32,000 nt of DNA from Halomicrobium mukohataei DSM 12286. GTDB lineage: Archaea > Halobacteriota > Halobacteria > Halobacteriales > Haloarculaceae. The DNA is taken from NCBI RefSeq assembly GCF_000023965.1, contig NC_013202.1, positions 1,680,001 to 1,712,000 of the forward strand, written 5' to 3'. How positions within the stretch are numbered: position 1 is the stretch's first letter; every line of letters begins with the position of its first letter. The translations under genes were made by a program, and so were the position numbers. The notes beneath the pieces are model-generated. The model worked only from the letters and a program-made list of their open reading frames with translations, searched no databases and was not told the origin of the DNA. This document shows, in pieces, positions 3,097 to 28,726 of the stretch.

Positions 3097-3118
3097 TACG
3101 GACGGTTGTCGTTGCGTA
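3097..3118. mobile_element. 22-nt internally deleted relic of the TACGG...CCGTA foldback element, flanked by TCA/TCA
   Basis: TCA(3094-3096) TACGGACGGTTGTCGTTGCGTA TCA(3119-3121). The first 13 nt are identical to the left end of the copies at 9886 and 28647, and the right end keeps CGTA. Confidence 0.5.
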
Positions 3119-3349: not shown

Positions 3350-4867
3350 ATGACACGGTTCGCTCGCTTTCGTCCGTCGGCCGACGATGCGGTGGCGCTG
3401 TTTGCCGGCGTCGCGGCCGTCGTGGGCTCGTTCGCCGCCGTCGGCTTCGCCCCGTCGTTCGTCGCGTCACCGATCGAGCGGTGGCTGGCCCGGCGGATGC
3501 CCGGCGCTGTGGTCTCGCTGGCGATCCAGTTTCTCGGTTCGCTCGGCCAGCAGCTGAACCTCGTCGCCGCCGCGCTCGTGGCCGTCTGCGTCGTCGCCGC
3601 CGTCGCACGCGTCGCCGGCACGCTCGGGGATCGACTCGCCAACCGCGCCGTCGGACCCGTCGTCGCCGGTGGCGTCGTCTTCGGCGTCGCGACGCTGCTC
3701 ACGGGATCTGTCCCTTCCAGCGGTGGTGCCGCAGTCGGGACGGCTCTCACACTCGGCCTCGCGGGGCTGTCGGGCTCGCTCCCGGCTCGCGGCGCGACGA
3801 GTCCCGACCGTCGGCGCGTCCTCGCGTCGCTGGGGACGGCTGCCGGACTCGGCGTCGTCGCGACCGTCCTGACCGACGACACCAGCCAGCCGACCGCGAC
3901 CATTCCGGACGACGCCAGTCCAGCGGTGCGTGAGGCACTCGAAGCGGCCGCAGACCAGTCGCTGGCCGTCGACGGACTCGAACCGCTCGTGAGCGACGAG
4001 TTCTTCAGCGTCGACATCAACGCCGTCGATCCCGAGGTCGACGCGACCCAGTGGTCCCTCTCGGTGACCGGCTCGGTCGAGGAAGAGATCACGGTCGACT
4101 ACGAGCAGCTCCGGTCGATGGACGCACGGACGGAGTTTCACACGCTGCGCTGTGTCGGCGAGTCGCTCAACGGGACGAAGATGGACAACGCCCTCTGGAC
4201 CGGCGTTCCCGTCCGGACGCTGCTGGACCGAGCCGGCCCCGACAGCGACTGTGACTGCGTGCGGGTCCACGCCGCCGACGACTACTACCAGGTGTTCCCC
4301 ATCGACGCGCTCAACGGCGCGATGCTGGCCTACCGGATGAACGGCCGCCCGCTGCCACAGGGTCACGGCTACCCGGCCCGGGCGCTGGTGCCCGGCCACT
4401 GGGGCGAGATCAACGTCAAGTGGATCACCGAGATCGAGGTGATCGACCGCGATGCGGAGGGCTACTGGGAGGAACGTGGCTGGCACGGCACCGGGCCGGT
4501 CGAGACCGTCGCGAAGATCCACGCCCAGAACACGCTACCAGACGGCCGCGTACAGGTCGGCGGCCACGCCTACGCCGGGACGCGTGGCGTCTCGGCCGTC
4601 GAAGTCTCGACTGACGGCGGCGACAGTTGGTCGGAGGCGCGACTCTCCGATCCCCTCGTCGAGTCGGTCGACTGGGCCGGCGAGCCGGGCGAGACGCCAC
4701 ACGCGCCGGACGTGTGGCGACAGTGGGCCTTCGAGTACGAGCCCCCGGCCGGCGAACACGAGGTCGTCGCCCGCGCGATCGAGGCCGACGGGACGGTCCA
4801 GCCCGAGACCGAACGCGAGGCCTTCCCCCACGGCCCCAGCGGGTGGGTGTCGAGGACGGTGGAGTAG
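3350..4867 (+). CDS. Molybdopterin-dependent oxidoreductase (sulfite oxidase / YedY family) with an N-terminal multi-pass membrane domain
   Basis: Trimmed from ORF 2630..4867 to the in-frame ATG at 3350 (MTRFARFRPSADD...). It has about 170 aa of hydrophobic helices, then HTLRCVGESLNGTKMDNALWTGVPVRTLL and AYRMNGRPLPQGHGYPARALVPGHWGEINVKWITEIEV. The C-terminal domain is Ig-like (VGGHAYAGTRGVSAVEVSTDGGDSW). Confidence 0.85.
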   Translation: MTRFARFRPSADDAVALFAGVAAVVGSFAAVGFAPSFVASPIERWLARRMPGAVVSLAIQFLGSLGQQLNLVAAALVAVCVVAAVARVAGTLGDRLANRAVGPVVAGGVVFGVATLLTGSVPSSGGAAVGTALTLGLAGLSGSLPARGATSPDRRRVLASLGTAAGLGVVATVLTDDTSQPTATIPDDASPAVREALEAAADQSLAVDGLEPLVSDEFFSVDINAVDPEVDATQWSLSVTGSVEEEITVDYEQLRSMDARTEFHTLRCVGESLNGTKMDNALWTGVPVRTLLDRAGPDSDCDCVRVHAADDYYQVFPIDALNGAMLAYRMNGRPLPQGHGYPARALVPGHWGEINVKWITEIEVIDRDAEGYWEERGWHGTGPVETVAKIHAQNTLPDGRVQVGGHAYAGTRGVSAVEVSTDGGDSWSEARLSDPLVESVDWAGEPGETPHAPDVWRQWAFEYEPPAGEHEVVARAIEADGTVQPETEREAFPHGPSGWVSRTVE

Positions 4868-4902
4868 CTCCTCCAGCGAACGGAACCGCGCGACACGGCG
4901 GG

Positions 4903-5646
4903 TTAGCTCGTCGCCCCGTCCACGTCGACGCTCTGGGACCGCTCGGTCTCGTGCCCCAGCTGGGTCTTCAGCTGATCGAGTTCGCGATCGACTCGCTGTT
5001 CGGTCGAGCGTCGGTCCAGTTCCCGGTCGATCTCGTCGCCCTCTGCGAGCACGTCGTCGAGCGCACCGCTCGCCTCGAGCTCTTCGAGCGCAGCCGCTCT
5101 GGCCTCCATCTGCTCGGTCCGTTCGGTCGCACGCTCGATTGCACGGTTCACGTCGGCCATGTCGCCGCCGACCCCGGTGAACGCCTCGGCGACGCGGGCC
5201 GACGCCTCGGCCGCTTCGTGGCGCGCCTTCAGCGTCTCTTTGTGGGTCCGGAACCCCTCGATCCGTCCCCGAAGTTCGATCTGGCGCTGGACGAGCTGGT
5301 CCTGCGTCGCCTGCAGTCTGTCGATCTGTTCGTCCAGGCCAGCGAGCTGATCGCTCGTCGCGTGTTTCTTCTCCAGGGCGCGTCTGGCCAGCTCCTCACG
5401 CTCCTGTCGGAGTGCCTCCTGGGCTTGCTCGTCGTACTTCTCGACGGCCGCCCGCAGGCGTTCGCGGTGCATCTCCAGGCGCTTCTTCTGGGTGGTGAGG
5501 TCGGCGATGCCGCGGTTGATCTCCTGGAGCTCGTCTCGGAGTTGTTCGTAGGAGTAGTCCAGTTCTGCGACGGGGTCTTCGACGCGGTTCAACAGGGCGT
5601 CGAGCCACGACCGGACGACGAAGCCAAACCGCCGGAGCAGACTCAC
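4903..5646 (-). CDS. pspA: PspA/IM30 family protein (phage-shock protein A-like coiled coil)
   Basis: The sequence VSLLRRFGFVVRSWLDALLNRVEDPVAELDYSYEQLRDELQEI... is followed by heptad-rich coiled coil. I chose the GTG at 5646, which is preceded by GGAGGGTG. The upstream 43 aa of the tracked ORF are basic and atypical for an acidic proteome. Confidence 0.8.
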   Translation of the reverse strand: MSLLRRFGFVVRSWLDALLNRVEDPVAELDYSYEQLRDELQEINRGIADLTTQKKRLEMHRERLRAAVEKYDEQAQEALRQEREELARRALEKKHATSDQLAGLDEQIDRLQATQDQLVQRQIELRGRIEGFRTHKETLKARHEAAEASARVAEAFTGVGGDMADVNRAIERATERTEQMEARAAALEELEASGALDDVLAEGDEIDRELDRRSTEQRVDRELDQLKTQLGHETERSQSVDVDGATS

Positions 5647-5932
5647 GGGCGCACCCTCCGTTCGGGACGGTCGCGTCGGTAGGGGGTACTGTCCATGTCT
5701 ACACCAGAACGACGACCGAGCGGCGGTTAATCGTGGTTTCGGGTGACTGTCCACGAAGCGACCAGTCGCCTGCAAGTTCGTCCTCGCGTCGTCACTCGGT
5801 CTCGCGTGGCGAGATCTCGACAGCGGCCTGCGTCGAAAGAAGAGAACGAACGTCGCGAACCGAGAGTGTCACACGCTCTTGGCCCCGGGTGTGGCCGGCG
5901 GTCGGCCACGGAGATCCGCAGTCAGATCCTCA

Positions 5933-6012
5933 TACGGGCAGTTGTAGACACGTTCCCGGTCGATCGCACACCGTCGTGCGATCAATCCGGCGAGGAACTA
6001 CAACTGTCCGTA
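5933..6012. mobile_element. Foldback MITE copy A (80 nt), flanked by TCA (5930-5932) and TCA (6013-6015)
   Basis: TACGGGCAGTTGTAG...CTACAACTGTCCGTA terminal inverted repeats, with an internal GATCGCAC/GTGCGATC stem. The right-hand TCA is the complement of the nrdJ TGA stop codon. Confidence 0.8.
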
Positions 6013-9885: not shown

Positions 9886-9965
9886 TACGGACGGTTGTAG
9901 GCGTTTACCCAGTCGACCGCACGACGGCGTGCGGTCGATCTGGTAAAGACCTACAACTTTCCGTA
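9886..9965. mobile_element. Foldback MITE copy B (80 nt), flanked by TGA (9883-9885) and TGA (9966-9968)
   Basis: TACGGACGGTTGTAGGCGTTTACCCAGTCGACCGCACGACGGCGTGCGGTCGATCTGGTAAAGACCTACAACTTTCCGTA. It is identical to copy D at 28647-28726. About 36 of 38 possible positions pair in the foldback. Confidence 0.85.
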
Positions 9966-9992
9966 TGATCGAGTCGACAGACGCCGCCAGGT

Positions 9993-10609
9993 TCAGAGGC
10001 CGTCGAGAAAGTTCTCGATGAGGTCGTGGCCGACTGCGGTCAGCACCGACTCGGGATGGAACTGGACCGCCTCGATGGGGTACTCGCGGTGGCGGACGCC
10101 CATCACTAGTTCGACCGTCCCGTCGTCGGTCGCCACGCCGGTCGTGGCCGTCACGTCGAAGCAGTCGGGCACCTCGTCGGCGATCAGCGAGTGGTAGCGA
10201 CCGGCCTGGAACCCCTGATCGAGTCCGGCGAAGACGCCCTGGCCGTCGTGGTCGATCGGGAACGCCTTCCCGTGGATCGGTTCGGGTGCGCGGCCGACCG
10301 TTCCGCCGTACTCGTAGACGGCGGCCTCCAGCCCCAGACAGACGCCGAGCGTCGGGACTTCGGGGCTGACTTCTCGTAGCACGTCCATCGTGACGCCCAC
10401 GTCGCGGTCGTTCTTCGGGTGGCCCGGACCGGGGGAAATGACGATGGCGTCCGGATCGACGGCCCGGACCTCGGCGAGCGTCGCGGTGTTGCGCAGTACC
10501 TCGGTGTCGGCGTGTTCCGAGACGTACTCGACGAGGTTGTAGGTAAAGGAGTCGAAGTTGTCGATAAAGAGCACGAGCGGCCGGTCGTCGCCGGCCGCCT
10601 CGTCGCCGC

Positions 10610-10613
<4 letters not shown>
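9993..10613 (-). CDS. trpG: Anthranilate synthase component II (glutamine amidotransferase)
   Basis: LVLFIDNFDSFTYNLVEY, GVCLGLEA (catalytic Cys) and AVQFHPESVLT. Its ATG overlaps the trpE stop (ATGA at 10610-10613). Confidence 0.92.
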
Positions 10614-12225
<1,612 letters not shown>

Positions 12226-14113: not shown

Positions 14114-14187
14114 GGGTTGGTGGTCTAGTTGGTTATGACACCTCCTTGACATGGAGGAGGCCGGCGGTTCAAATCCGCCCCAACCCA
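14114..14187 (+). tRNA. tRNA-Val (anticodon GAC)
   Basis: GGGTTGGTGGTCTAGTTGGTTATGACACCTCCTTGACATGGAGGAGGCCGGCGGTTCAAATCCGCCCCAACCCA. The acceptor stem GGGTTGG/CCAACCC, the anticodon stem CCTCC/GGAGG with loop TTGACAT, and the T-arm GGCGG-TTCAAAT-CCGCC all fold by hand. No encoded CCA. Confidence 0.9.
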
Positions 14188-19004: not shown

Positions 19005-19488
19005 TTACGATCGATACTCGTCGATGTCGACGGCGCGTCTCGTCTCCTCGTGTGTGAGATCGCTGTCGGCGGAGACGATCGGTGCGCCCCACTCACGGCC
19101 GACCGCAGCCACGAGTCCGTCGACGCCGTCGAGATACGGTCCGCCGGCCGGAATCTCGTCTGCGATCCGGGCAGCGGTCTCGGACAGTTCCGCATCGACT
19201 TCGACGACCTCTACCCAGCCCAGCGCCTCGATCGCTTCCTCTAAGTCGCCGTCTGGGTGGTTGCCGACGCCGACGATCGCTTCGGTGTACGCTGGTGCGG
19301 GTGCGATCCAGGTTTGGTCGGCACCACCGTTGGCCTCGTAGTACTCTCTCGTCGCCGAGAGCCCACTCATACGGATTATTGTAGCGATTTACCGGTGATC
19401 GTCTACTCCGTGGCGACGATCACCGGTAAGCAACTACAATAAACCGTATCAGGTAATCGATGAGAAAATTCGCGTCCAGGACTCTCAT
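19005..19488 (-). pseudogene. vapC: vapC (PIN-domain toxin) interrupted after codon 13 by MITE copy C
   Basis: The ATG at 19488 overlaps the antitoxin stop (ATGA) and encodes MRVLDANFLIDYL. The 79-nt element follows. Removing 19370-19451 (82 nt) joins it in frame to SGLSATREYYEANGG...GAPIVSADSDLTHEE..., giving a 133-aa PIN protein. Confidence 0.85.
19370..19448. mobile_element. Foldback MITE copy C (79 nt), flanked by TCA (19367-19369) and TCA (19449-19451)
   Basis: TACGGATTATTGTAG...CTACAATAAACCGTA termini. The divergent centre is TTACCGGTGATCGTC / GACGATCACCGGTAA, a perfect 15-bp stem. Confidence 0.85.
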
Positions 19489-19727
19489 CGATCTCCCAGC
19501 CGCTCCGCGCGGTCCGCACGCTCGTCTCTGGCCTTGGCTCGTTTCGTCCGGATCCACTCACCTTGTTCCTCGGACAGCACCCCGAACCCGTCGTCGAAGT
19601 CACTCTCCGTGGTGTCGGCGATCAATCGTTCGAGGACGTCGTTGTACGACTCGCCCTCGCGTCGCCGGTGTTCGAGGCGTTCTTTGATCCGTTCACTGAC
19701 CCGGATCTGTTCGTCGGCGGTTGCCAT
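19485..19727 (-). CDS. vapB: Antitoxin of the vapBC pair (ribbon-helix-helix-like, 80 aa)
   Basis: Trimmed to the Met at 19727: MATADEQIRVSERIKERLEHRRREGESYNDVLERLIAD... is the usual haloarchaeal antitoxin pattern. The stop overlaps the vapC ATG. Confidence 0.75.
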   Translation of the reverse strand: MATADEQIRVSERIKERLEHRRREGESYNDVLERLIADTTESDFDDGFGVLSEEQGEWIRTKRAKARDERADRAERLGDR

Positions 19728-19754
19728 CGCTCGTGTCGACGTTGGCGTTGACAG

Positions 19755-19760
19755 AATAAA
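19755..19760 (-). promoter_or_regulatory. TATA box candidate of the vapBC operon
   Basis: The minus strand reads GATTTATTC, with TTTATT ending 28 nt upstream of the vapB ATG. This spacing fits a leaderless transcript. Confidence 0.45.
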
Positions 19761-19820
19761 TCGTTTGGCTCTCCCCATCCGGTCGTGTTCAGATAAGAGA
19801 TCAGTGCAGGCAGTCTGAAG

Positions 19821-20109
19821 CACCGAAAGCCCTCGTACAGTTGCGGTCCCGCGACTCGCTGTGCGCGCTTCGCGTGCTTGTTCTGAGAGAGCAAGCTCTC
19901 TCGACGTTCGCCTCTCTTCGTTCGGGTCACCTTCGTCGGGGTTCCCGCAACTGTACTCGCCCTTTCATCCGCCAGGGTTCAGACTGTGAGGCAGCCGAAT
20001 CCTGGCGGATGAAAGGGCGAGGCCCGCTCCGGGGTTCTGCGGCGGCACTATCCGAACGGAGTGAGGATATCCGCCACAGAACCCCGGAGCGGGCCGAGGG
20101 CTTTCGGTG
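19821..20109. repeat. 289-nt composite palindromic element: a 15-bp closing stem enclosing three abutting long hairpins
   Basis: CACCGAAAGCCCTCG (19821-19835) pairs with CGAGGGCTTTCGGTG (20095-20109). The three inner stems are TACAGTTGCGG/CCGCAACTGTA, the 21-bp perfect stem 19956-19976/20001-20021, and the 24-bp stem 20022-20045/20071-20094 with one mismatch. Confidence 0.8.
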
Positions 20110-28646: not shown

Positions 28647-28726
28647 TACGGACGGTTGTAGGCGTTTACCCAGTCGACCGCACGACGGCGTGCGGTCGAT
28701 CTGGTAAAGACCTACAACTTTCCGTA
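28647..28726. mobile_element. Foldback MITE copy D (80 nt), flanked by TCA (28644-28646) and TCA (28727-28729)
   Basis: The sequence is identical to copy B at 9886-9965. It lies between the two phoU paralogs. Confidence 0.85.

Follow-up and report, generated by a model that had tools for sequence, protein, structure and literature searches.

The window, a 32,000-nt stretch of Halomicrobium mukohataei DSM 12286 DNA, holds on its minus strand a vapB antitoxin gene followed by a vapC toxin gene that is split by a 79-nt element (Table 1). The vapB product matched the Pfam family VAPB_antitox (PF02697) with 44.2 bits against a cut-off of 27.9; gene callers give it 80 aa both here and at intact loci, and its sequence is identical in Halomicrobium katesii. 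As the original prediction had stated, the vapB TGA stop and the original vapC ATG share the four letters ATGA (19488-19485). Reading on from that ATG, we found MRVLDANFLIDYL, then IRFIVVAYR, and then a TGA (19422-19420) inside the element, so the prediction that the frame enters the element and stops (LIRFIVVAYR*) was borne out. The 3' part of the toxin gene is present as a 121-aa ORF, which is carried in the public databases as a 'PIN domain-containing protein' under WP_015762734.1, with copies ACV47892, QCD66331, and QFR21137. Rfam and tRNA scans of the window returned a tRNA-Val at 14114-14187 as their only match.

Table 1. Features of the vapBC locus, numbered from the first letter of the window (TSD, target duplication).
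Feature	Position	Strand	Description
Predicted vapB promoter/operator	19735-19768	minus	CCAAACGA; conserved with the intact loci
TATA-like TTTATT	19760-19755	minus	28-33 nt upstream of the vapB ATG
Imperfect palindrome	19752-19735	minus	GTCAACGCCAACGTCGAC (GTCAACG..CGTYGAC); 8-25 nt upstream of the vapB ATG
vapB antitoxin gene	19485-19727	minus	80 aa, intact; stop overlaps the original vapC ATG
5' vapC remnant	19452-19488	minus	Codons 1-12 (MRVLDANFLIDY) plus C, the first base of codon 13; includes catalytic Asp5
ORF from the original vapC start	19420-19488	minus	22 codons, MRVLDANFLIDYLIRFIVVAYR; stop within the left MITE arm
TSD copy 1	19449-19451	minus	TGA on the gene strand
MITE	19370-19448	minus	79 nt, TACGG...CCGTA; family profile E = 7.7e-27
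TSD copy 2	19367-19369	minus	TGA; its TG and the last A of the MITE (19370) make a new ATG
121-aa ORF	19005-19370	minus	vapC codons 14-133, with a junction-made Met in place of Leu13

We compared the region upstream of vapB with that of intact metagenomic loci. The 42 nt before the vapB ATG were the only upstream stretch conserved with two of these loci, L003 and L007, which are otherwise diverged there. This stretch contains the TTTATT and the palindrome, which look like a haloarchaeal TATA box for a leaderless transcript and an operator. With an 80-aa vapB and a conserved TATA-like box and palindrome, the earlier claim that the antitoxin gene and its promoter remain intact stands. We also observed a highly self-complementary segment of about 289 nt on the minus strand (19821-20109), 94 nt upstream of the vapB ATG and bounded by 15-nt inverted repeats (CACCGAAAGCCCTCG and CGAGGGCTTTCGGTG). 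H. katesii has this segment at the same site but inverted, and at least seven further H. katesii tiles contain related copies. The segment represents either another small mobile repeat or a stretch of DNA beside the vapB promoter that can invert.

The two arms of the 79-nt element (TACGGTTTATTGTAGTTGCTTACCGGTGATCGTC and GACGATCACCGGTAAATCGCTACAATAATCCGTA) form a near-perfect inverted repeat around an 11-nt loop; with the flanks counted in, the arms are 38 nt long and 84% complementary. The predicted RNA fold of the element has an energy of -44.1 kcal/mol (z = -9.3). The insertion point is at vapC codons 13/14, in TAC-C(TGA)G-TGG, where the TGA in parentheses has been duplicated, and the reconstructed empty site reads TACCTGAGTGG. 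It had been proposed that an 82-nt span be deleted to restore the gene; the span was right, but the element proper is better placed at 19370-19448, with one TGA copy on either side. The ATG at 19370-19368 does arise as proposed: the element (..CCGTA) supplies the A with its last letter, and the duplicated TGA supplies the TG. In every structural feature but one the element is a MITE, being short, non-coding, and multicopy, with terminal inverted repeats and a target duplication of fixed length; the exception is an autonomous partner IS, which did not turn up in the DNA sampled (see below).

Removal of 19370-19451 (82 nt) in silico yielded, as expected from the original prediction, a single 402-nt ORF encoding a 133-aa PIN protein. 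Against the Pfam PIN profile (PF01850, cut-off 23.6) the score rose from 23.7 bits for the 121-aa ORF, whose match begins only at profile position 29, to 36.5 bits for the reconstruction, whose match spans profile positions 2-115. A search of 5.8 billion proteins with the reconstructed protein found 563 homologues. About 118 of the 120 listed were 131-138 aa long and covered 98-100% of the reconstruction, the exceptions being the Halomicrobium entry (121 aa) and two longer calls; entries of 121 aa were seen only in Halomicrobium among the matches listed. In an alignment of 19 homologues, the first 15 residues of the restored N-terminus, MRVLDANFLIDYLSG, equal the orthologue consensus and D5 is near-invariant, which supports the reading of this stretch as a canonical PIN N-terminus with the first catalytic Asp. 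The acidic residues of the reconstructed protein (D5, E42, D96, and D114/D116) are invariant or nearly so in the alignment.

The closest view of the gene before the insertion came from four intact metagenomic vapBC loci (L003, L005, L007, and L009), relatives at 82-83% identity with the same vapB-vapC order and the same ATGA overlap. When their DNA was aligned with the locus, there was one clean gap of exactly 82 nt, and the empty site (..TAC(C/T)TGAG..) had a single TGA; the state before insertion is thus inferred from orthologues at no more than 83% identity. Together with the duplication statistics of the whole element family, described below, this alignment upholds the claim that the element entered a previously intact vapC. 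In RefSeq and GenBank the 121-aa ORF is listed as an ordinary protein, as would be expected if vapC naturally started at the ATG at 19370 and the upstream MRVLDANFLIDYL were a chance ORF. We give that reading almost no weight. All 13 of the 13 residues upstream of the junction equal the consensus, including the near-invariant D5, the other homologues listed are full length, and the 121-aa ORF barely reaches the Pfam threshold. No orthologue naturally starting at SGLSATREYY was seen among the listed homologues, and a natural short start is refuted by the homologue lengths, the N-terminal consensus, and the 82-nt empty-site gap.

An AF2 model of the reconstructed protein, built on the alignment, had a pLDDT of 95.6 and placed strand β1 at residues 2-4 and helix α1 at residues 6-13. 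Foldseek searches of the PDB with this model gave VapC toxins as the top matches, with a probability of 1.00 and TM scores of 0.71-0.77; the best were Shigella VapC, M. tuberculosis VapC15, E. coli F plasmid VapC, and FitB, and the D7A and D7N Shigella VapC structures were among the top matches. When the protein is aligned with Shigella and E. coli VapC, D5 falls on their catalytic D7; the alignments are weak by sequence (E ~0.6), were used solely for this mapping, and are supported by the fold matches. Mutation of the Asp equivalent to D5 abolishes VapC activity. A sequence search of the PDB with the family profile gave no match at E <= 0.01, and the score against the NCBIfam equivalog NF047959 (TA_toxin_VapC) was 16.3 bits, below its cut-off of 80. 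Judged by its sequence, the protein is a PIN/VapC-like toxin that falls outside the NF047959 equivalog, and it has the operon context of a VapC toxin, with a PF02697 antitoxin gene directly upstream and overlapping. The module resembles the VapBC systems of Shigella and E. coli, VapC15, and FitAB in its PIN fold, its four conserved acidic positions, the upstream antitoxin gene with an ATGA overlap, and the promoter palindrome. It differs from the solved VapBC systems in having an archaeal PF02697/DUF7557 antitoxin, in sharing only 13-22% identity with solved VapCs, and in its broken toxin gene.

We examined how widely the split gene is found. The window is 100% identical over 20.2 kb to the chromosome of H. 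mukohataei JP60 (CP039375.1). The 121-aa protein occurs in three H. mukohataei-type assemblies, and the H. katesii version (WP_018259073.1) is likewise 121 aa long and 97.5% identical. H. katesii carries the MITE at the same position, with all 79 nt identical. The original prediction had pointed to sister strains as a source of an uninterrupted vapBC allele; there was none, as all four genomes examined carry the insertion. The reconstructed empty site was also sought by exact match in metagenome contigs, again with no result. Because the insertion is common to the H. mukohataei assemblies and H. katesii, it appears to be old, and it is fixed in the four assemblies; it either predates the split of the lineages or was exchanged between them.

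The junctions are identical in independent assemblies, namely CP039375.1, CP045142.1, the H. katesii scaffold KB905379.1, and a Logan assembly of SRR017870. This refutes an assembly or sequencing artefact as the source of the insertion, an explanation whose probability we put at practically zero and for which we found no supporting point, even if the record CP045142.1 does contain some error. That record differs from the window by 11 single-gap indels over 20 kb and by nothing else, and its Rad51/RecA-like gene is split into calls of 194 and 51 aa, compared with 235 aa in JP60. The indels are probably homopolymer errors of that record.

Comparison of the H. katesii locus with the window showed one synonymous change in the 5' vapC remnant and five changes in the 3' part, three non-synonymous and two synonymous. 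The 3' remnant (vapC') has no stops and no frameshifts, and its undecayed state with five changes is compatible with either neutrality or weak constraint. From the promoter through vapC', 6 of 807 positions differed, while the MITE alone (0/79) and the promoter alone (0/84) had no differences at all; in the spacer downstream of vapC', 28 of 407 positions differed. In the neighbouring genes, pooled for the same pair of species, pS was 0.072 and pN 0.010, giving a pN/pS of 0.14. The corresponding value for the vapC' remnant was 0.49, but five substitutions are too few and the whole block is unusually similar, so this ratio is uninformative on constraint. Divergence is low in the non-coding parts of the block too and thus points to a more recent common ancestry of the block rather than to selection on the ORF. 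The vapB-MITE-vapC' block with its 6/807 differences between JP60 and H. katesii corresponds to positions 9917-10723 of the aligned loci L143 and L142, or about 19005-19811 of the window, and its sequence suggests that it was exchanged recently between the lineages. We also observed that H. katesii has about 1.4 kb of extra DNA between vapC' and a CBS-domain gene (L142, 11147-12518), which is absent in H. mukohataei and contains two unannotated ORFs of 107 and 236 aa.

We then considered what the 121-aa ORF could encode. By the alignment and the AF2 model, strand β1 and helix α1 are missing from it, and so is the catalytic Asp5, which is now encoded solely on the detached 22-codon remnant; the acidic active-site set of VapC, complete in the reconstructed ancestor, is therefore incomplete in the ORF. 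The original prediction of a 121-aa VapC without its first acidic residue was correct as far as it went, but the whole of β1 and α1 is missing as well. Since these two elements are absent, a folded 121-aa product is doubtful, and from the model we infer that the product cannot work as a PIN RNase and is unlikely to fold. The stop of the 22-codon ORF is followed 49 nt downstream by the junction AUG. The mRNA fold prediction places the A and U of this AUG in base pairs at the foot of the -44 kcal/mol hairpin, and we saw by eye no Shine-Dalgarno-like sequence upstream of it. Because the AUG lies partly in the hairpin base, little or no product is to be expected. From the sequence, translation of the 121-aa ORF is possible but is not the outcome we favour, and the ORF is in all likelihood a dead remnant that has been wrongly annotated as a gene.

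It could be argued that the truncated VapC has been domesticated. Ribosomes terminating on the 22-codon ORF would melt the hairpin and re-initiate, and the dead PIN protein would bind VapB as a co-repressor or antitoxin sponge. The 22-codon ORF does end within the left hairpin arm, the 121-aa ORF is intact in four genomes with all orthologue-invariant residues of that part kept, and the divergence of the block is low overall. The low divergence, however, is found equally in the non-coding MITE and promoter, and the pN/pS of the remnant, for what five changes are worth, is above that of the pooled neighbouring genes. The lack of the central β1 and α1 makes folding unlikely according to the model, and the start codon is paired, with no Shine-Dalgarno-like sequence seen by eye. 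We regard domestication as quite unlikely.

A full-length toxin could also be recovered if the 82 nt were removed from the RNA by an intron-like excision of the hairpin. The attraction of this idea is that removal of exactly 82 nt restores the frame and that the insert is a very stable hairpin. The archaeal splicing endonuclease recognises a bulge-helix-bulge, in which two 3-nt bulges lie 4 bp apart. The predicted fold of the insert is not of this kind, having symmetric 3x3 internal loops around a 15-bp helix, and the same element is found in many non-genic sites. None of our observations points to processing of the transcript, and there is hardly any likelihood, in our estimate, that the element is excised from it.

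Other members of the MITE family were sought in the window and in other genomes. There were no close copies within the window at up to 3 mismatches. It took the family profile to detect three diverged relatives of 80 nt there (9886-9965, 28647-28726, and 5933-6012), which share the TACGG..CCGTA ends and each have a TGA or TCA duplication. Two of them, those at 9886 and 28647, differ very little in sequence. A TCA-flanked 22-nt remnant at 3097-3118 may be the product of an internal deletion or of an excision. BLAST searches against plasmids found matches in 11 places on the 222-kb H. mukohataei JP60 plasmid NZ_CP039376.1, the best of them 98.9% identical, and weaker full-length matches in other haloarchaeal genera; the JP60 plasmid carries about nine copies of the MITE. 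We also scanned one genome per species with the core TACCGGTGNNNGTCGCCACGG, and at least 120 tiles were listed. About 70 of these 120 were from H. katesii (8-kb tiles) and five from one Halobacteriales MAG, while the remaining listed tiles were rejected as chance matches in GC-rich bacteria.

At least 60 distinct full-length copies were recovered, nearly all of them from H. katesii. Among the 60 copies listed, 58 were exactly 79 nt long and 54 had identical 3-nt flanks (TCA in 31, TGA in 22, and TAA in 1), so that a TSA duplication (TCA or TGA) was present in 53. These flanks are direct (TCA..TCA or TGA..TGA) and not inverted, and therefore represent a target duplication and not part of the terminal repeat. 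The target had C at position -1 in 36 of 54 cases and G at position +3 in 39 of 54, giving a consensus of C(TSA)G with a weaker palindromic extension, and the vapC target, C(TGA)G, agrees with this preference. Since the last letter of the element is A and the duplicated triplet is TGA or TCA, nearly every insertion yields one outward-facing ATG(A), and there were 55 outward-facing junction ATGs in the 60 copies listed. The family might thus act as a built-in 'restart' device for knocked-out genes: ribosomes that stop within the hairpin would open it and start again at the junction ATG, giving N-terminally truncated products. We hold this to be very improbable; if it were true, restart at this locus would give a nuclease-dead VapC that may bind VapB and retune toxin-antitoxin regulation.

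An autonomous partner of the MITE would be expected to be an IS with TACGGnnnnTTGTAG ends and TNA duplications. In the roughly 800 kb of Halomicrobium DNA sampled, no IS with TACGG ends turned up. Where TACGG and CCGTA ends with equal flanks were paired at a spacing of 300-4000 nt, they proved in every case to be neighbouring MITEs, 'orphan' ends all had MITE-like interiors, and a repeat search within 764 kb returned an aldo/keto-reductase paralogue only. In Haloarcula marismortui pNG400 (L136, 1000-1502) we observed a related MITE, which is flanked on both sides by TGA and runs from TACGGATTAGTGTAG to CTACACAACTCCGTA. Upstream of it is a CRISPR array with the repeat GTTACAGACGGACCCTCGTGGGGTTGAAGC, whose last repeat (~1325) is about 90 nt away. 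The IS5-like ISHma10 beside this related MITE was rejected as a partner, as its ends are unrelated. On H. katesii scaffold 1 (L054, ~3645-5660, and L121) an element with GAGGGTGTCATAGAAC ends sits inside MITE copies, so that one mobile element targets another.

Inactivation of genes by prokaryotic MITEs has been reviewed (PMC10969869), and among haloarchaea, MITEHsal3 disrupts dmsA in Halobacterium salinarum 91-R6 (PMC7002104) and HqIRS MITEs have been described in Haloquadratum (PMC3119063). We found no paper in the literature on Halomicrobium MITEs, on this 79-nt family, or on this vapC locus. Like the known gene-splitting MITEs of prokaryotes, the element is short, non-coding, and multicopy, has terminal inverted repeats and a target duplication, and leaves gene fragments that can be re-joined in silico. 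In contrast to these examples, the Halomicrobium family is only 79 nt long and forms a near-perfect hairpin, with a 3-nt TSA duplication and a CTSAG-like target. The Rickettsia palindromic elements, which insert in-frame into genes (PMC10969869), are also palindromic mini-elements inside coding sequence, but they are read through in frame, whereas the Halomicrobium insert adds an 82-nt frameshift and a stop and truncates the protein.

Both the IS1031-type elements of the IS5 family and the eukaryotic PIF/Harbinger elements make 3-bp TNA duplications. What the Halomicrobium family has in common with them is a 3-nt T-N-A duplication and a palindromic target centred on TNA. This is no more than a resemblance, and we do not assign the element to either group; the ~800 kb yielded neither a transposase gene nor an IS with matching TACGG... 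ends.

Together these data make it very probable that the locus is a type II vapBC operon in which a non-autonomous 79-nt MITE has inactivated the toxin gene, leaving an orphan antitoxin and a toxin pseudogene. The data show directly that the MITE entered TAC-C(TGA)G-TGG within vapC and duplicated the TGA, and they show its exact boundaries and the intact ancestral frame. The conserved vapB promoter presumably still drives transcription, so that VapB would be made, and ribosomes coupling into the old vapC start would produce a 22-residue peptide and terminate in the left MITE arm. The 121-codon ORF would begin at the ATG formed by MITE and target duplication and would specify a protein without β1, α1, and the Mg2+-binding Asp5; its partly sequestered AUG would allow little or no product. 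The net outcome would be an orphan VapB beside a toxin pseudogene that annotation pipelines call a normal gene.

The event is an ordinary, well-supported case of a known phenomenon, gene inactivation by a MITE, and its main value is for annotation. The two 121-aa entries, WP_015762734.1 and WP_018259073.1, should be marked in the databases as what is left, at the 3' end, of a vapC pseudogene disrupted by a MITE, and vapB at this locus should be regarded as an orphan antitoxin. A new biological question would arise only if the truncated product or the MITE-supplied ATG proved functional. The analysis also defines an abundant 79-nt MITE family of Halomicrobium with a TSA duplication and a CTSAG target, which can be used as a marker of strain history and for the correction of other split genes.
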